Below, piece by piece: positions 3,195 through 31,667 of a stretch of DNA of 42,879 nucleotides. The notes under the pieces are model-generated. The model was not told the DNA's origin. It saw only the letters and a list, made by a program, of their open reading frames with translations, and made no database searches. The stretch lies in IMG/VR virus record IMGVR_UViG_3300045988_132779, positions 1 to 42,879 of that record; one strand, 5' to 3'. The position numbers and the translations under genes were made by a program. The stretch is from a virus. How positions within the stretch are numbered: position 1 is the first letter of the stretch; each line of letters begins with the position of its first letter.

Positions 3195-3458
3195 ATGAAA
3201 ACAATTACAGTAATCTCTTATAAGTTTGGCGAAAAAAGCTGGAAAAACTTCGAAGGAGAACCTATCAAAAAATATGAGCACTCAGTTCTCCTAGACATTT
3301 CAAACACCGAAGTCTTCAGTGATAAAGAAAAAGCAGAACTAAATTACAAGATCGTTGTCCCCTTTTCTAGAATTAGAGAGAAACGATTCATCAAAGATAT
3401 TCCACTCAGTAACGTAAACGAGGCGCTTAACAAGAAAAAAGCAAGTAGGAGAAAGTAA
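3195..3458 (+). CDS. Hypothetical 87-aa protein with a basic C-terminus
   Basis: GGAGG RBS (taggaggtatcatctATG). No recognisable motif. Confidence 0.6.
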   Translation: MKTITVISYKFGEKSWKNFEGEPIKKYEHSVLLDISNTEVFSDKEKAELNYKIVVPFSRIREKRFIKDIPLSNVNEALNKKKASRRK

Positions 3459-3565
3459 CGACAAAAAGCGCCTACCCAAGCGAATGGGTAGACGCCTAAC
3501 AGAACGTGACTGCATGGTTAGGTGCAATAGCACCCGTCTGTATTGTAGCACAAGGAGGTGTAAAT

Positions 3566-4693
3566 GTGGCCAGTATTAGTAAGCGTGGCAAAAAATGGCA
3601 ATATCGTGTCTCTTACAAGGATAATGATGGAACACGCAAGTATGTCAACAAGGGTGGCTTCCCCTCAAAAAAGGCTGCTGATATAGCGGCAATCGAAGTC
3701 GAACGTCAGCATAATCGCGGTGCAAATTTGGATCTTAACAAGATAACGTTAATCGACTACTGGGACAAATGGATTGAGCTGTACAAATCTGGTAAGCATT
3801 CTCGTATCACCGAAGCCCGGTATAAAACAATTCGTAAACAGTTATTAGCCTACTGGGGCGAAAGCCGTGAACTAAAATCAATTTCAAAATCAGACTGGCA
3901 GGCATTTATCAATGAGTTTGGCAAAAAAAGGGCTAAAGATACAGTCAGCAAATTGAATGGCTATGTTCGCTCAATGGCTGATTCTGCCGTAGATGACCAA
4001 ATAATATATACTAACTTCACTCATAACGTTGTCCTCACTGGTAATGAGGGCCAAGCAGGAATCATCAAATATTTGCAAGTAAAGGATTTGCGCAAGCTCG
4101 TCAATTACTGCCTAGAATTTGCAGACTACGAGCATATTGCTTACTACATCATCGCAACCGGGGCACTGACCGGAGCTAGGTATTCTGAAGTTCTTGGGCT
4201 CACGTGGGATCATGTTGATCTTAAAAAGCGCGTTGTACACATTACCAGAACGTGGGATCACAGATATGGGAGCGGCTTTGCTGCTACTAAGAACAAATCA
4301 AGTGTACGTGACATCGACATCACGAGAGAACTTGCAGACTTGCTTTTACGTCTCAAGAAAGAACAGCAAGAGGTCTACCTTGCTCAGGGATATCGTGATA
4401 GCAAACAACTATTATTTCGCAGCATACGGCATAACATGCTATCAAGCACGGCAATTAATAAGGATCTAAGGACGATTCAGAAGACTCTCGACATTTCCCC
4501 CGCGATTACTTTCCATGGGCTTAGACACACTCACGTTTCCTATTTGATTGCCAATCACGTTGACATTAACTATATTTCAAAAAGACTTGGGCATGCCAAT
4601 ACAATGATCACTCAAAAAGTCTACGCTCATCTTCTTGAAGATCAAAGAAAAGAGCAGGTATCCCAGACGCTACAAGCACTTTCTAGACTTTAG
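3566..4693 (+). CDS. int: Tyrosine recombinase / phage integrase
   Basis: Catalytic motifs TGARYSEVLGLTW (Arg), HGLRHTH (H-x-x-R) and LGHANTMITQKVYAHL (Tyr). GTG start at 3566 with AAGGAGG 7 nt upstream; the longer track ORF has no RBS. Confidence 0.92.
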   Translation: MASISKRGKKWQYRVSYKDNDGTRKYVNKGGFPSKKAADIAAIEVERQHNRGANLDLNKITLIDYWDKWIELYKSGKHSRITEARYKTIRKQLLAYWGESRELKSISKSDWQAFINEFGKKRAKDTVSKLNGYVRSMADSAVDDQIIYTNFTHNVVLTGNEGQAGIIKYLQVKDLRKLVNYCLEFADYEHIAYYIIATGALTGARYSEVLGLTWDHVDLKKRVVHITRTWDHRYGSGFAATKNKSSVRDIDITRELADLLLRLKKEQQEVYLAQGYRDSKQLLFRSIRHNMLSSTAINKDLRTIQKTLDISPAITFHGLRHTHVSYLIANHVDINYISKRLGHANTMITQKVYAHLLEDQRKEQVSQTLQALSRL

Positions 4694-4890: not shown

Positions 4891-4920
4891 AAGCCTCCCG
4901 CCATTGCTGGTAGGAGGCTT
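4882..4920 (-). terminator. Rho-independent terminator of the protease operon
   Basis: 8-bp stem AAGCCTCC/GGAGGCTT. On the minus strand it is followed by AUUUUUGUG. Confidence 0.65.
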
Positions 4921-27503: not shown

Positions 27504-27740
27504 CTAAATTGCCTCCGTGTATTGTTTGATCTTGTCAACCTGCAAGTCGCACCATTCATCATGTGTTCCGTCTGGTTTGTAGACTGTTACGACTGGGAAC
27601 GATTGATAGCCACATTTACGGAAACGTTCAATATCGCGCTCGTCAGCCGTCACTGTTTGAACTCTCATCGCTTTCGATAGCTTAGCCACCGTATGCTGGC
27701 ACTTCTGACAGCCGAGTTTAACATAGACAATTGCCTGCAT
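27504..27740 (-). CDS. nrdH: NrdH/glutaredoxin-like redoxin
   Basis: MQAIVYVKLGCQKCQHTVAKL (CxxC at the start of a thioredoxin-fold-sized 78-aa ORF) and SFPVV. An alternative longer start lies at 27830. Confidence 0.65.
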   Translation of the reverse strand: MQAIVYVKLGCQKCQHTVAKLSKAMRVQTVTADERDIERFRKCGYQSFPVVTVYKPDGTHDEWCDLQVDKIKQYTEAI

Positions 27741-27833
27741 TTTTCTTCGTTCTTCCCTCGTTAGTTCTTCAATAATAACTCGCTCAGTCCGACTAACGTA
27801 GCCGTAGCTGAGTCTTCTCATACCCGACATAGC

Positions 27834-28370
27834 TTACACCGCCAACTCAAAAGAGAAGCCACGGTTGTGTTTGAGCTTGCCACGAAGGCACTCGGATACA
27901 TGGCTCTGGTTTAGTCCAAGAAGCTCCGAGGCTTTCTTTGCGCTACCAAAAAAATAGTGATGTCCTGAGCTGGTCACTACATAGACTGGACACTCGTTCG
28001 CTTTCGCTACGCGCTTGTTGCGGGTACCGTACATGTTGTTATAAAGTGCTGAGCACCATTCAAGATTTGATAACACATTGTTTGTCTTGTTTTCGTCTTT
28101 GTGGTTGACCTGCGGAAAATTGTCGGGGTTATCCAAGAACGCCGTAGCCACGAGACGGTGGATAAGCTTATATTCAATGTCTCCGTCTCGACATAGAGCA
28201 ATCTTACGATACCCCCGGCCGCTTGAGCCACCAACGAGCACCGTTCCTTTTATGCGGTGCCCTTGTGCGTCTTCGCGATCAAGGCTTCTTACTCTTCCCA
28301 TATTGCTAACTTGGTAGATGCCTTCAAATCCTTCAATGTCTTTCCAAATCTCATTCTCTTTTTTAAACAT
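27834..28370 (-). CDS. HNH homing endonuclease (NUMOD4 + HNH_3 + C-terminal HTH)
   Basis: NUMOD4 motif WKDIEGFEGIYQVSNMGRVRS. HNH_3 motif HRLVATAFLDNPDNFPQVNHKDENKTNNVLSNLEW. Overlaps the upstream gene by 8 nt. Confidence 0.85.
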   Translation of the reverse strand: MFKKENEIWKDIEGFEGIYQVSNMGRVRSLDREDAQGHRIKGTVLVGGSSGRGYRKIALCRDGDIEYKLIHRLVATAFLDNPDNFPQVNHKDENKTNNVLSNLEWCSALYNNMYGTRNKRVAKANECPVYVVTSSGHHYFFGSAKKASELLGLNQSHVSECLRGKLKHNRGFSFELAV

Positions 28371-29511
28371 AGTAAATCGCCCTCGTATCATGGTCAGAAT
28401 ATTCAATTAGTTCAAATGTCTTATGAGCAACAACTCCGAGATCATCTGTCCACTTATCCGTAGGTTTTCTCGTAGACATCTGCCTTTGAACGAATCCACC
28501 TAAATCCTTGCTCATTTCACTGTGCATGTGACCCGTTATCAATTCGCGGTTCTGTGCCGTGCCTAACATGAAGCCGAACTCATCGAGGTATTTTGCAAGG
28601 TAGTTGTTCTTACCTTTATCACCATGAGTGGCGCCAATGAAGTTATGGCCTAACATTGTGCCTTTGTAATGCTTCAGTGATATATCCCAAGTGATGTTCG
28701 GCTGGTTGCTGTAGGCACGTTTCAATAGACGCGCAAACATATATCCAACTGACGGGTCGTGATTACCTGGTGCATACATGACCTCACACTCATTGGCATT
28801 CTTAATAATCGCTTCAATCAGTGTCTCGAAGTATTGTTCCATTTCGTTCACAGTCTCGCCTAGGTCAGTTGTTTCGAGCTGTGTGCCCTTTGCTGTGGTT
28901 GAGTTGATATTGTCCACGTGAGCAAGATCGCCGCCCAGAATGAGCAATATTTTGGCGTAGTGGCCGCGTTGAATGATTTCTAGTTGCCGTTTAAGAGATT
29001 CCGCATAGACGTCGAATGTGTGACCGTTGAAATGCGTGTCAAATGCAGGAATGACCAGATAGCGATCTGATTCCACAAAAATAGGAGCCTTAGCTTGGTA
29101 TGGCTCCTTGTGTGTGATGATGTCATTCATCAATGATTCGTATTGTTCTGCTTCGACTAACGGCCTAATTTGTATCTTGCTTTGATACAACGTTGCTTCA
29201 GGCGTTTGCTTCCAGAAGTTGCTTGTAGCACGTACAAGCTCCCACTTGGTGTAATCATACCCGTGAGCTTCCAGAACCTCTCTAGGCGTCATTTTGTGGC
29301 CCCTGACAACCTTTAGAATGGTTTCACTGGACTGCGTACCGTCTGAATCGTATTCATTCTTCAGTGGCTTCTGAAATTCGATACCAAGCCTTTTCGCTTT
29401 ACCTTGAAGCGCATCATAGCTAATTCCGAGCTTGTCGGCCGTTTCTCGTCTAGTAAAGCCTTCAGAGGCGAGCTTCCTAATGTCACCGATCTGTTCATCT
29501 GTCCATTGCAT
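28363..29511 (-). CDS. Fusion protein: N-terminal HTH domain + calcineurin-like metallophosphoesterase
   Basis: HTH segment FTRRETADKLGISYDALQGKAKRLG. Phosphoesterase motifs PAFDTHFNG (DxH), LGGDLAH (GDxxH), PGNHD (GNHD) and TGHMH (GHxH). Confidence 0.8.
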   Translation of the reverse strand: MQWTDEQIGDIRKLASEGFTRRETADKLGISYDALQGKAKRLGIEFQKPLKNEYDSDGTQSSETILKVVRGHKMTPREVLEAHGYDYTKWELVRATSNFWKQTPEATLYQSKIQIRPLVEAEQYESLMNDIITHKEPYQAKAPIFVESDRYLVIPAFDTHFNGHTFDVYAESLKRQLEIIQRGHYAKILLILGGDLAHVDNINSTTAKGTQLETTDLGETVNEMEQYFETLIEAIIKNANECEVMYAPGNHDPSVGYMFARLLKRAYSNQPNITWDISLKHYKGTMLGHNFIGATHGDKGKNNYLAKYLDEFGFMLGTAQNRELITGHMHSEMSKDLGGFVQRQMSTRKPTDKWTDDLGVVAHKTFELIEYSDHDTRAIYYV

Positions 29512-29538
29512 CTACTCGCCTCCTAAAATATAATGTCC

Positions 29539-29564
29539 GTGAGCAGTTTGATGACGCTGCTCAC
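29539..29564. other. Hairpin GTGAGCAG-10 nt-CTGCTCAC in the leader of the HTH-phosphoesterase gene
   Basis: Perfect 8-bp stem. The same 8-mer pair recurs at 29774..29817. Confidence 0.5.
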
Positions 29565-29568
29565 ATTC

Positions 29569-29679
29569 TCATGAAGAACTTCCCGAGTTCTTAAGCCCTC
29601 GGATTAGGCCCCGAAAGCTTTTTTGTTGCTTAAAAAATTTCGATGAGTTAGAATTAAATTGTTCCCAACAGATACTCAT
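29569..29679 (-). CDS. Possible 36-aa basic peptide (MSICWEQFNSNSSKFFKQQKSFRGLIRGLKNSGSSS)
   Basis: AAGGAG lies 5 nt before the ATG. Otherwise unsupported, and it sits in a structured intergenic region. Confidence 0.3.
   Translation of the reverse strand: MSICWEQFNSNSSKFFKQQKSFRGLIRGLKNSGSSS
29626..29654 (+). promoter_or_regulatory. Plus-strand sigma-A-type promoter TTGCTT-17-TAGAAT (antisense to all neighbouring genes)
   Basis: Hexamers at 29626..29631 and 29649..29654 with an exact 17-nt spacer. Confidence 0.5.
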
Positions 29680-29738
29680 TTTCACTCCTTTGTAATACCC
29701 TTTCTTTAGGCTCTCGGCCCCCAACCGAGGGCTATTTT
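29661..29738 (+). ncRNA. Candidate antisense sRNA 1 (~75 nt), ending at a + strand hairpin/U-tract
   Basis: Starts downstream of the promoter above. The hairpin 29709..29733 (GGCUCUCGG/CCGAGGGCU) contains G.U pairs that become A.C mismatches on the minus-strand RNA. Followed by AUUUU. Confidence 0.4.
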
Positions 29739-29758
29739 AGTATCTTCTATAAGGAATG

Positions 29759-29767
29759 TGCTAATAT
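29759..29767 (+). promoter_or_regulatory. Plus-strand extended -10 promoter element (TGcTAATAT)
   Basis: TG at 29759-60 and TAATAT at 29762..29767. No good -35 element. Confidence 0.4.
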
Positions 29768-29773
29768 ATATAT

Positions 29774-29879
29774 GTGAGCAGTGGCCTTTCTCCTCCAAGT
29801 CAACCGCTGCTGCTCACACAAGTATTCCGTTTTTTCATTCTTTTGGCCCTTGGACTGGTCTCTGAGGGCCTTTTTGTTG
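29774..29879 (+). ncRNA. Candidate sRNA 2 (~105 nt): 5' hairpin with a CUCCUCC loop, U-rich linker, strong terminator
   Basis: 5' stem GUGAGCAG/CUGCUCAC (29774..29817). The loop contains CCUUUCUCCUCCAAG. The terminator GGCCCUUGGA-CUGGUC-UCUGAGGGCC (29845..29870) is followed by UUUUUGUUG. Its two G.U pairs exist only in the + strand RNA. Confidence 0.45.
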
Positions 29880-29880
29880 C

Positions 29881-29914
29881 ACAAAAATAGCACCTCACCG
29901 TTTGGCGGAGTGCT
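29881..29914 (-). terminator. Rho-independent terminator of the 286-aa orphan gene
   Basis: On the minus-strand RNA: AGCACUCCGCC-AAAC-GGUGAGGUGCU (10 of 11 positions pair, including G.U) followed by AUUUUUGU. Confidence 0.6.
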
Positions 29915-29945
29915 TTAGTAAATAAAAAGATGCCAAAGCGTCATA

Positions 29946-30806
29946 TTAGCTCTCTTGGTTTGTAGCACTAGATTTCGAAACGGCTGCCTTAAGCATATTC
30001 CCAGCATCGGTCGGACGTTCAGCATAAATTAACTCTGAAGGATTATTGGGATTAGCGTATGGTGGATTCAGCGTTCCCGAAATAAATTCAGCTAACTTAT
30101 TTGATTCTAAATCAACGATTGCCATCTGGATGCTTGTCTTCTCAATGTTAGAAAAAACTGGCACTTTGCTAAATGCGGTTGCTACCCATCCAGTATTGTC
30201 TCCCTGCACTCTACCATCTACAGCAATGAATGCTTTTGGTCCTGGAACTAACGGCCAATGGTCTGAATTCCGAAGCAGAGTTAGAGCTAGCGGAGAACTT
30301 CTGTCTATTAAATTCAAAATGCTCTTGTTCTTAGAAAAAGTGCTTCCCCAATCTTTTTCATTTGCAAGATTACCCAGATAATCAGACATAATATCCAACA
30401 TATCATCATCTGATGGAGCATCTGACAGTAGGGAGACTATTTTCGAATAGATACTCAGTCCGTACGGATTTGTGAGGAGAGAACTCAACCTGTGAAGGCC
30501 CTGCTCTTGATCATCGGTCTTTTGTAGATATTCTGCCAAAAGCAAAGTCTTCTTCATGTCATCCAAACGGTCTTTTAAATGATCCCCCGTATCCACAAGA
30601 TCAAGGATCAGATCTCCCCATTTGCCGTTTAAGACGTCTACCGCCAGCTGCTTTCCTTTCGACTTGGCAGTATCGACCACTGCTGACCTCACATCCTTAC
30701 TATCAAGCTTTTTCTGCTCTATTCTCTTATCCAAGCTCATTTTCTCAGCATGCAAAAGATATTCTGGATGCTCAATCATGGCCCGAATTTCCGCTTTCTT
30801 GTCCAT
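29946..30806 (-). CDS. Orphan 286-aa cytoplasmic protein (moron between ArpU and the late-region leader); function unknown
   Basis: Clear ORF with GAGGTGA 6 nt before the ATG. Charged helical N-terminal half and a beta-rich C-terminal half. Has its own terminator. No motif I can name with certainty. Confidence 0.7.
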   Translation of the reverse strand: MDKKAEIRAMIEHPEYLLHAEKMSLDKRIEQKKLDSKDVRSAVVDTAKSKGKQLAVDVLNGKWGDLILDLVDTGDHLKDRLDDMKKTLLLAEYLQKTDDQEQGLHRLSSLLTNPYGLSIYSKIVSLLSDAPSDDDMLDIMSDYLGNLANEKDWGSTFSKNKSILNLIDRSSPLALTLLRNSDHWPLVPGPKAFIAVDGRVQGDNTGWVATAFSKVPVFSNIEKTSIQMAIVDLESNKLAEFISGTLNPPYANPNNPSELIYAERPTDAGNMLKAAVSKSSATNQES

Positions 30807-30926
30807 TTCGTATCACCTCACAAAAATAGTACCCCAGCATGAACTGGAATACTACATTGAGGTGATTAAGTGAGCACTGCGCAGCCGTTTTCCGCCGGCC
30901 AATCTGGTGCACGTTTGATAGCGCAA

Positions 30927-30991
30927 TGTGGCATGCGGGAATCGAACCCGCCTGACTATCACGGTCAGTCCTCATTGCCACGCCTTGCCAC
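30927..30991 (-). other. Non-canonical tRNA-like element (acceptor + T-arm + one extra arm; no D-arm, no variable region)
   Basis: The minus strand reads GTGGCAA-GGC-GTGGCAA-TGAGGA-CTGAC-CGTGATA-GTCAG-GCGGG-TTCGATT-CCCGC-ATGCCAC-A. The T-arm with the GTTCGATTC loop is perfect. A 6-bp acceptor pairing is possible with either GTGGCAA copy. Confidence 0.5.
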
Positions 30992-31090
30992 AGCTTTATC
31001 ATCACTGAGGCTCGGAGGAAAAATGCGGTGTCTCAGGTTTCTCACCTTTGGCACAATACCATAATAAGACGTAAAAACAGTTGAAAGGTC

Positions 31091-31519
31091 TCACAAAGGT
31101 CTCATCTCGATTTCAACCAATGGACAAATCTCGGCGAATGCAATTAGCGCTTCTCGTTTTGTTCGATAATACTGGGCTTTTGATAAAAAAAGCTTGTCCA
31201 TTATTTGCTTGTCACTATATCGTTTGGTTAAGTAAGAGCTTGTTAGTATAATCCGATGATTCTCTGATTCCAGAGATTCGATAGCGCCTTCACAGCACGC
31301 TATATAGTACAGCTCGTCAGCGTGCGATACGAGCTTGTCCTCGGCTTTATTTCCATAGCTGGGTGACTTGGGCATGCCGTCCATCACGGGGCTTCTGAGC
31401 GCTATTTTGGTGCGTTGAGCGAGCCGCTTGTGATGCCAGTAGTTCCCCAAGACCTCTTTGGCGTTTTCAATCGTTTTGTCATGATCAATTGGGCTAAAAT
31501 ATCTCGTTGCTCGCACCAC
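31091..31519 (-). CDS. ArpU-family late transcriptional regulator
   Basis: LRSPVMDGMPKSPSYGNKAEDKL ... IILTSSYLTKRYSDKQIMDKLFLSKAQYYRTKREALIAFAE matches the ArpU family pattern. The GTG at 31519 (AAGGAG 8 nt upstream) is preferred over the GTG at 31528, which overlaps the SD. Confidence 0.8.
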   Translation of the reverse strand: MVRATRYFSPIDHDKTIENAKEVLGNYWHHKRLAQRTKIALRSPVMDGMPKSPSYGNKAEDKLVSHADELYYIACCEGAIESLESENHRIILTSSYLTKRYSDKQIMDKLFLSKAQYYRTKREALIAFAEICPLVEIEMRPL

Positions 31520-31667
31520 TGCGTCCACTCCTTATGGTATAATTTGTCTGGGCTTGTAGGATAAGCGTGCCGTGATGGTGCGCTTTTGTTATACTGTTTT
31601 CGGAGGCATTTCAATATTATAAAATCAATTAAAAATGTTGTTGTCTACAGTGCCTCCAGCGTGCCCC

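Follow-up and report, generated by a model that had tools for sequence, protein, structure and literature searches.

A PHROG 15873 gene as exchangeable cargo between the late activator and the packaging genes of Lacticaseibacillus temperate phages

Variable accessory slots are a well-known feature of temperate phages. In lambdoid phages, moron genes are located downstream of the late regulator Q. Phages P2 and P4 carry defence hotspots that are described as variable (Rousset et al., 2022, PMC9122126) and, in the account given in PMC10884400, a virion-assembly blocker provides non-enzymatic prophage defence by binding a component of the invading phage. The present analysis concerns a 286-amino-acid (aa) open reading frame (ORF) in a viral DNA stretch of 42,879 nucleotides (nt; IMG/VR record IMGVR_UViG_3300045988_132779, positions 1 to 42,879), hereafter the window. 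A first-pass annotation had presented this ORF as an orphan gene inserted between the late activator ArpU and the leader of the late genes, with a possible role in phage defence. The gene belongs to an existing, uncharacterized family, PHROG 15873.

The locus resembles phage morons and the P2/P4 hotspots in its fixed position, its conserved flanks and the unrelated, horizontally exchanged cargo found in close relatives, and its slot adjoins a late activator and is bounded by a terminator. It differs from them in that no separate promoter was detected for the slot, that a 5′ hairpin sequesters the Shine-Dalgarno (SD) sequence, and that tRNA genes or remnants share the transcription unit. Its cargo moreover includes items that serve lytic growth (a methylase and tRNAs) besides possible defence genes. 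With Abi-alpha/DUF4393 and other Abi proteins of lactic acid bacteria, the gene shares the format of a single gene of ~250-350 aa on a mobile element, and one relative lies beside AbiL; in contrast to these systems, it showed no sequence match to any Abi model in Pfam or PADLOC. Its likeness to the blocker, as far as that protein is characterized in PMC10884400, is one of description, with no homology claimed: both would be small cytosolic prophage proteins that lack a catalytic domain and are proposed to act as binders. A literature search yielded no paper on the PHROG 15873 family or on the cargo slot.

An exchangeable gene in a fixed slot

The window evidently derives from a Lacticaseibacillus temperate siphophage. 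Over positions 29500-31100, the Lacticaseibacillus phage R23.9 (Junavirus) was 99.2% identical and R10.1 97% identical, and 44 Lactobacillus/Lacticaseibacillus phage records partly matched this region. All genes around the 286-aa ORF are carried by the minus strand. The genes that define the slot are:

31091-31528, minus strand: ArpU/DUF1492-type late transcription activator (Pfam DUF1492, E=2.6e-6; phrog_248 'transcriptional activator', E=4e-46), which bounds the region upstream
29946-30806, minus strand: the 286-aa ORF (ORF listing; PHROG 15873)
28363-29511, minus strand: 382-aa protein with a GcrA-like helix-turn-helix (HTH) and a metallophosphatase domain (Pfam GcrA, Metallophos; phrog_704 'DNA repair exonuclease', E=1e-106), whose gene directly follows the slot and precedes those for HNH and terminase

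As the first-pass annotation had described, the ORF runs from an ATG at 30804-30806 to a TAA at 29946-29948; it is preceded by the SD sequence GAGGTGAT at 30812-30819. Close homologues of its product formed 17 clusters of 49-100% identity. An exhaustive profile search gave a family size of 152 clusters at 50% identity, nearly all of 245-290 aa, to which a second, profile-based homologue search added only one protein. In comparisons with homologues of 50-65% identity, synonymous sites were saturated (proportion of differing sites, pS, 0.76-0.89; pN at non-synonymous sites, 0.24-0.36), and pairs with unsaturated synonymous sites showed ratios of non-synonymous to synonymous substitution (dN/dS) of 0.08-0.18. 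Because homologue clusters exist and dN/dS is this low, the ORF is, by these comparisons, a real coding gene under purifying selection.

Alignments and blastn comparisons with eight relatives demonstrated that conserved blocks stop at the ends of the gene. The downstream block reaches to ~29943 and the upstream block starts at ~30804, and the cargo junctions coincide with the stop and start codons. With tblastn, the gene was found in two Lacticaseibacillus phages, as against 44 related records with matches to the surrounding region, and induced, viable phages exist that lack it. Other phages carry the following at this position:

R18.1: a 215-aa gene in the slot
BH1: a ~333-aa gene in the slot and a CsbD-like gene on the opposite strand
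iLp84 and PLE3: a 137-aa gene in the slot and tRNA-Ile
A2: a homologue of the 137-aa gene of iLp84 and tRNA-Leu
Lc-Nu: no 5′ slot element; the interval from ArpU to the exonuclease gene holds a D12-class (Dam-type) DNA methylase and an odd tRNA
R24.2 and JNU_P10: no gene; ~400-490 bp with tRNA-like remnants

Profile alignment (hhalign) indicated that the BH1 and R18.1 cargo proteins are unrelated to the PHROG 15873 family. An allele of the same family with 39% identity occupies the same slot in another Lacticaseibacillus phage (L045/L059).

The first-pass annotation had interpreted about 1.6 kb between ArpU (31091-31528) and the next gene (28363-29511) as inserted extra DNA. The gap of ~1.58 kb is real; a simple insertion it is not. 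Because relatives with an empty slot still hold ~1.0 kb from ArpU to the next gene, the event is, as far as the aligned genomes tell, a replacement of ~0.4-0.5 kb by a 0.86-kb gene, and the proposed insertion between ArpU and the leader gives way to a cassette swap in a slot of which both edges, 5′ and 3′, are conserved. The accompanying view of an accessory element that differs between close relatives was borne out by the pattern of presence and absence and by the unrelated alternative cargo; conservation across most relatives and a match to a housekeeping hidden Markov model (HMM), which that annotation had named as refuting it, were not observed. Presence or absence among relatives, conserved flanks and unrelated alternative cargo were all found, as for moron and hotspot cargo. 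At the level of genome comparison, these results show that the 286-aa gene is non-essential, horizontally exchanged cargo in a dedicated slot of A2/Lc-Nu/J-1-like temperate phages. The slot closes the ArpU transcription unit and immediately precedes the packaging and late genes.

The gene was 99.8-100% identical at the nucleotide level in 16 phage genomes. In 15 of these 16 the leader was 98-99.5% identical (85.6% in L024), while the exonuclease gene was only 86-94% and the upstream intergenic region 81-98% identical, and the ArpU allele was often a different one. Since the gene is near-identical where its flanking genes have diverged, alignment of these genomes shows a recent spread among diverged phage backbones.

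That the slot takes unrelated genes would also be expected if the gene were a neutral or selfish passenger that persists since conserved slot edges promote recombination; no library or fold search assigned it a function, which fits this explanation. It is nevertheless quite improbable, because purifying selection was clear across homologues of 25-65% identity, which span several Bacillota genera and a probable Bacteroidota contig, and because length and fold are well conserved.

Two of the alternative cargo genes yielded faint matches of their own. The BH1 cargo gene (L003, 3892-4896, minus strand) gave a weak PADLOC match to a TIR effector model (E=4e-4). Its annotated start appears too far upstream, the conserved SD indicating a start near 4893, and the CsbD-like stress gene beside it is located at 3431-3730 on the plus strand. 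The 215-aa cargo gene of R18.1 (L002, 3627-4274, minus strand) showed a sub-threshold match to a proteasome subunit (Ntn-hydrolase; E=2e-4, 21.4 bits against a cut-off of 22.4).

Slot edges, tRNA-like block and late leader

The non-coding elements around the gene, in the direction of transcription, are:

30920-31062, minus strand: near-invariant non-coding block of ~140 nt just downstream of ArpU (alignment of 8 phages)
30867-30923, minus strand: variable spacer, the site of genuine tRNA genes in relatives (blastn blocks interrupted at 30866 and 30924)
30812-30866, minus strand: conserved 5′ slot edge, a two-tier fold that sequesters the SD (folding and shuffles)
29880-29914, minus strand: intrinsic terminator hairpin and T-run, the 3′ slot edge (folding)
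29512-29879, minus strand: leader of the downstream packaging and late genes (sequence comparison)

At the 5′ edge, the anti-SD sequence AUCACCUC (30866-30859) pairs with the SD GAGGUGAU (30819-30812) as an outer stem around a 13-bp hairpin (30855-30826) and the U-run behind it, a terminator-like arrangement. The predicted folding free energy (dG) of 30812-30866 was -31.3 kcal/mol (z -6.6), and none of 200 shuffled sequences was as stable. The same two-tier fold precedes four unrelated cargo genes, those of R18.1, BH1, iLp84 and A2; the cargo products behind it begin MDKKAEI, MSFISGF, MMKTNLS and MKPINF. Across variants (the window, L002, L003, L004 and L007), its dG was about -29 to -37 kcal/mol. 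By this prediction, any gene placed in the slot inherits a sequestered ribosome-binding site, which suggests that the two-tier structure is a shared translational gate for cargo.

All nine phages compared have the hairpin at the 3′ edge, even R24.2, JNU_P10 and Lc-Nu, whose slots hold no cargo gene. The first-pass annotation had assigned the 286-aa gene its own minus-strand terminator; the hairpin and T-run are there, but they belong to the backbone and not to the gene. Transcription of the ArpU/tRNA/cargo unit stops at this terminator. A search for minus-strand sigma-70-like promoters in the stretch from ArpU to the 286-aa gene gave none, and only a weak extended -10 (TGGTATTGT, ~31053-31061) was spotted by eye, within the conserved block.

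This ~140-nt block was near-invariant in 8 phages, whereas ArpU and its adjacent DNA (30924-31599) were only 80-94% identical. In its 3′ part (~30927-30982, minus strand), RNAalifold predicted an acceptor stem, an anticodon-like arm and a T-arm, with no D-arm and no variable loop; the only changes seen in this fold were one-sided and preserved pairing. ARAGORN and Rfam searches of the window and of 29450-31150 yielded no tRNA and no known RNA family, and the lone notable Rfam match was a 17-nt stretch of T-arm and acceptor to the tmRNA model, below the gathering score. The upstream tRNA-like element noticed earlier thus survives as a conserved remnant that lacks a D-arm, and not as a tRNA recognized by ARAGORN or Rfam. 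From its conservation and predicted fold, the block is a conserved tRNA-derived element. In the adjacent spacer, iLp84 carries tRNA-Ile(TAT), A2 tRNA-Leu(TAA) and Lc-Nu an odd tRNA. ORFs of 59 to 83 aa that overlap the tRNA-like block, annotated in A2 (as ORF51) and in other records, were considered and set aside as translations of the RNA element.

The leader contains four exact copies of GTGAGCAG, all within 29539-29817 and the only ones in the 42.9-kb window. Together, GTGAGCAG and CTGCTCAC form two inverted pairs (29539/29557 and 29774/29810), an arrangement that recurs in relatives. The leader repeat unit has a period of ~252 bp, with a 42-nt repeat at 29595 and 29846, and a second leader hairpin lies at 29845-29870. 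An insertion or recombination scar had been suspected from near-identical 10-mers at 29774 and 30870. Both 10-mers exist, but the scar was rejected: the copy at 29774 is an arm of a leader hairpin, the copy at 30870 is a variant with one mismatch, and neither lies at a cargo junction. The antisense RNA cassettes postulated downstream of the gene correspond to two plus-strand sites with a hairpin and a T-run, for which no plus-strand promoter-like site was found in 29500-29900.

Several further observations concern the leader. Its inverted pairs, repeats and plus-strand hairpins may be putative binding sites of the ArpU-type activator or RNA structures of the leader. A 36-aa ORF, MSICWEQFNSNSSKFFKQQKSFRGLIRGLKNSGSSS (29569-29679, minus strand), has a strong SD (AAAGGAG) and overlaps a leader hairpin; it is kept in R23.9, R18.1, BH1 and R24.2 and may encode a leader peptide upstream of the 382-aa gene. 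R23.9 (L001, ~3376-3467) and R18.1 have ~100 bp of extra leader relative to window positions ~29860-29875, just downstream of the slot terminator, and this ~100-bp indel falls at the repeated hairpin unit.

Beyond the leader and the 382-aa exonuclease gene, the following genes were annotated:

27834-28406, minus strand: I-HmuI-like HNH endonuclease (Pfam)
27504-27830, minus strand: thioredoxin-like gene (weak Pfam matches; phrog_22)

In relatives, the gene for the terminase small subunit (terS) comes after this block. The 382-aa protein, in which a GcrA-like HTH N-terminus is fused to a calcineurin-like metallophosphatase, is kept directly upstream of the HNH and terminase genes across the phage group.

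The PHROG 15873 protein and its relatives

The orphan status given to the gene was not upheld. Residues 1-279 of its product matched positions 1-278 of the 278-position PHROG 15873 profile over the full length (E=3.6e-155), and all 84 diverse relatives examined matched this PHROG as well. Neither an annotated function nor a Pfam domain nor a solved structure exists for the family, and all database names of its members read 'hypothetical protein'.

Searches of sequence libraries gave little guidance. The 286-aa protein had no Pfam match at E<=0.1 and no match in NCBIfam or among PDB sequences, and Pfam searches with the 84 family members returned scattered, chance-level matches only. No transmembrane helix was found, in agreement with the first-pass annotation: the Kyte-Doolittle mean over 19 residues peaked at 0.86 and no hydrophobic segment was present. 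An AlphaFold model built from an 84-sequence alignment reached a predicted local distance difference test score (pLDDT) of 84 and a predicted template modelling score (pTM) of 0.77. This model divides the protein into three parts:

residues 1-75: charged, flexible, poorly ordered helices
residues 78-180: confident helical bundle
residues 185-276: C-terminal alpha/beta domain with winged-helix topology

The C-terminal half had been called beta-rich. About five short strands are indeed predicted there, but the description was overstated, as this half also contains three helices and resembles a winged helix.

Foldseek searches with a first model (pLDDT 70) against PDB and BFVD gave no match at E<0.2, nor did the better model (pLDDT 84) against PDB, for which the best E value was at least 0.45. 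The weak fragments that recurred were winged-helix domains (Cdc6, TFE-alpha, PadR, BLM-RQC and MarR), and the best profile match to PDB sequences was a MarR wing (E=0.034, 40 residues). The topology of the C-terminal domain, helix, helix, beta-hairpin, helix, is like that of MarR/PadR and of the helical-lid/winged-helix modules of Cdc6/ORC, which were the top recurrent Foldseek and profile matches. The protein differs from them in that the matches were non-significant (E 0.03-3, TM score 0.2), that its recognition region is acidic and that it has no ATPase domain. Its isoelectric point (pI) is 5.2, and that of the recognition helix and wing region 4.4. With no significant sequence or structure match to MarR/PadR and a recognition region that is not basic, the protein is probably not a classical DNA binder. 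Near-invariant residues of the family are K85, G116, K122, L140, F157, L233 and G269, among which no catalytic motif was recognizable.

Family members were found in several types of genomic context. In Lactobacillaceae prophages of differing backbones, the gene always lies between the late activator and HNH or terS, both with DUF722/HNH/Terminase_4 modules and with Terminase_2/SPP1-portal modules; the gene precedes HNH or terS in prophages of L. plantarum and Lapidilactobacillus, among others, whose terminases differ. Elsewhere, a member is located between the MuF and scaffold genes of a myophage, upstream of terS in a phage from a Eubacterium metagenome-assembled genome, beside genes for a large serine recombinase and an XRE protein, and on a probable Bacteroidota chromosomal contig with a TonB-receptor gene and housekeeping neighbours, flanked by long intergenic gaps. 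In the L. plantarum and Lapidilactobacillus prophages (L009-L015, L040/L044), a conserved ~56-aa ORF (…KYGYVTPQEAEMDAHLDKWMK…) directly follows the family gene or overlaps its stop codon; it may belong to those backbones or be a partner gene.

Three further members, all matching phrog_15873, lie in defence islands. In the first, AbiLi (E=3e-87), a 148-aa gene and a 244-aa gene precede the member, which is followed by an Mrr_cat_2 nuclease. The second comprises the member, an LmuA-like trypsin protease and DndB. The third is a dense island on a plasmid of Paenisporosarcina antarctica (NZ_CP038016, L066 1-14717) with an Eco57I-type restriction-modification system, PDC-S60 (here a 1023-aa metallophosphoesterase), a 429-aa gene and the family member, and then PycC and PycTM, a recombinase, a non-specific nuclease and, further on, HamA. 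New systems may be encoded by two unannotated genes in the middle of this plasmid island, the family member (264 aa) and the 429-aa gene. No conserved partner was identified: neighbours of 107, ~428 and ~240 aa in different contexts were not mutually homologous, and hhalign of the family profile against a defence-island neighbour indicated no relationship. Because no neighbour is conserved between contexts, the unit is a single gene.

The position and the fold raise the possibility of a regulator or packaging helper internal to the phage, that is, a winged-helix DNA binder that acts on the late leader or in cos/pac recognition. Members occur immediately upstream of HNH or terS in six different Lactobacillaceae phage backbones, sometimes at 18 bp, and the C-terminal domain has the weak winged-helix similarity described above (MarR wing, E=0.034; Foldseek matches to Cdc6, TFE, PadR and RQC, E 0.45-3). 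The same matches are, however, non-significant and the recognition-helix and wing region is acidic. The gene is furthermore found with both cos-type (HNH and Terminase_4) and pac-type (Terminase_2 and SPP1 portal) modules and in non-phage defence islands, tblastn detected it in two Lacticaseibacillus phages against 44 related records, and induced, viable phages lack it. Such a role is therefore improbable. Based on the predicted model, and because there is no catalytic motif, only weak winged-helix resemblance and no conserved neighbour gene, we read the 286-aa protein as a binding protein and not an enzyme.

Possible roles in defence or counter-defence, and significance

Since members occur in defence islands, in an integrase-proximal copy and at moron-type positions, the interpretation tentatively adopted is that the 286-aa gene encodes a single-gene, non-enzymatic anti-phage (superinfection) defence that acts by binding, a proposal whose chance of being correct is put somewhat short of even. 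In such a mechanism, the cytosolic, acidic protein would bind a component of a competing phage stoichiometrically and thereby block or sense it. The SD-sequestering hairpin would keep its synthesis low or conditional, and unrelated cargo genes would be exchanged between the fixed slot edges by recombination. Of the single-gene defence that the first-pass annotation had suggested, the general idea gains context support from the defence islands, but its Abi-alpha form fails: the likeness to Abi-alpha/DUF4393 found no Pfam match (E<=0.1 for the query, E<=0.01 for the 84 members), and PADLOC returned nothing consistent.

Several results weigh against a defence function. The association with defence islands rests on three contexts, a small sample and a raw count. 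The 286-aa protein had no match in PADLOC-DB v2 at E<=1, and the 84 family members gave only scattered single matches with E>4e-4. With no known effector domain and no structural match in PDB, the mechanism is a guess. In addition, the gene is oriented as the lytic genes are, at the end of the early/middle unit and with no sigma-70-type promoter of its own found, whereas prophage defence needs expression in the lysogen. For some homologues, which precede terS by 18 bp, co-transcription with the late genes is probable. Finally, the slot or its side also holds a DNA methylase and tRNAs, which serve lytic growth and fit counter-defence better.

Counter-defence or host takeover is the main alternative. 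Synthesis of the protein would accompany that of the ArpU unit as the lytic cycle passes from early to late, and the protein would bind and neutralize an immunity protein or another protein of the host, which would allow replication and packaging to go on. Besides the lytic orientation and the place of the gene as the last of an early/middle unit lacking a promoter-like site of its own, the items in or beside the slot that aid lytic growth, namely the D12-class, orphan-type methylase of Lc-Nu and the tRNAs, are consistent with this proposal. The low pI of the protein (5.2) and of its winged-helix-like part (4.4) is more in keeping with a protein that binds other proteins or mimics DNA than with one that binds DNA, and patchy distribution with recent horizontal spread is typical of anti-defence genes as well. 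On the other hand, distant members lie in chromosomal and plasmid defence islands (with AbiL, Mrr-like, DndB, Pycsar and Hachiman components), which is unusual for anti-defence genes, and one member is found beside an integrase and an XRE gene, a typical place for prophage-expressed genes. An SD locked behind a terminator-like hairpin would also be an odd design for quick action in infection. Overall, counter-defence is regarded as rather unlikely.

A broader version of the defence proposal would make PHROG 15873 an unrecognized single-gene, non-enzymatic defence family that binds a phage component and has a fold new to PDB, delivered in Lacticaseibacillus phages through the slot, with the hairpin and the tRNA-like RNA acting as a riboregulator that gates any cargo. 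This combined proposal is doubtful, though worth stating. The confident model that lacks a structural relative, the association with defence islands, and the conserved SD-locking hairpin with its tRNA-like block set the locus above a routine accessory slot.

Lacticaseibacillus rhamnosus, L. casei and L. paracasei are major probiotic and dairy organisms, and their prophages decide phage sensitivity in fermentations. The bounded slot yields candidate defence or counter-defence genes, namely PHROG 15873, the 215-aa gene of R18.1, the BH1 gene with its weak TIR-like match and the 137-aa gene of iLp84 and A2, and, for engineering, it provides a natural site of insertion. The accessory genes may have a post-transcriptional control in common, to judge by the conserved SD-locking hairpin and the near-invariant tRNA-like block. 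If PHROG 15873 is indeed a defence family, it would contribute a single-gene system that is non-enzymatic and structurally new, and that other Bacillota and at least one probable Bacteroidota contig also carry.

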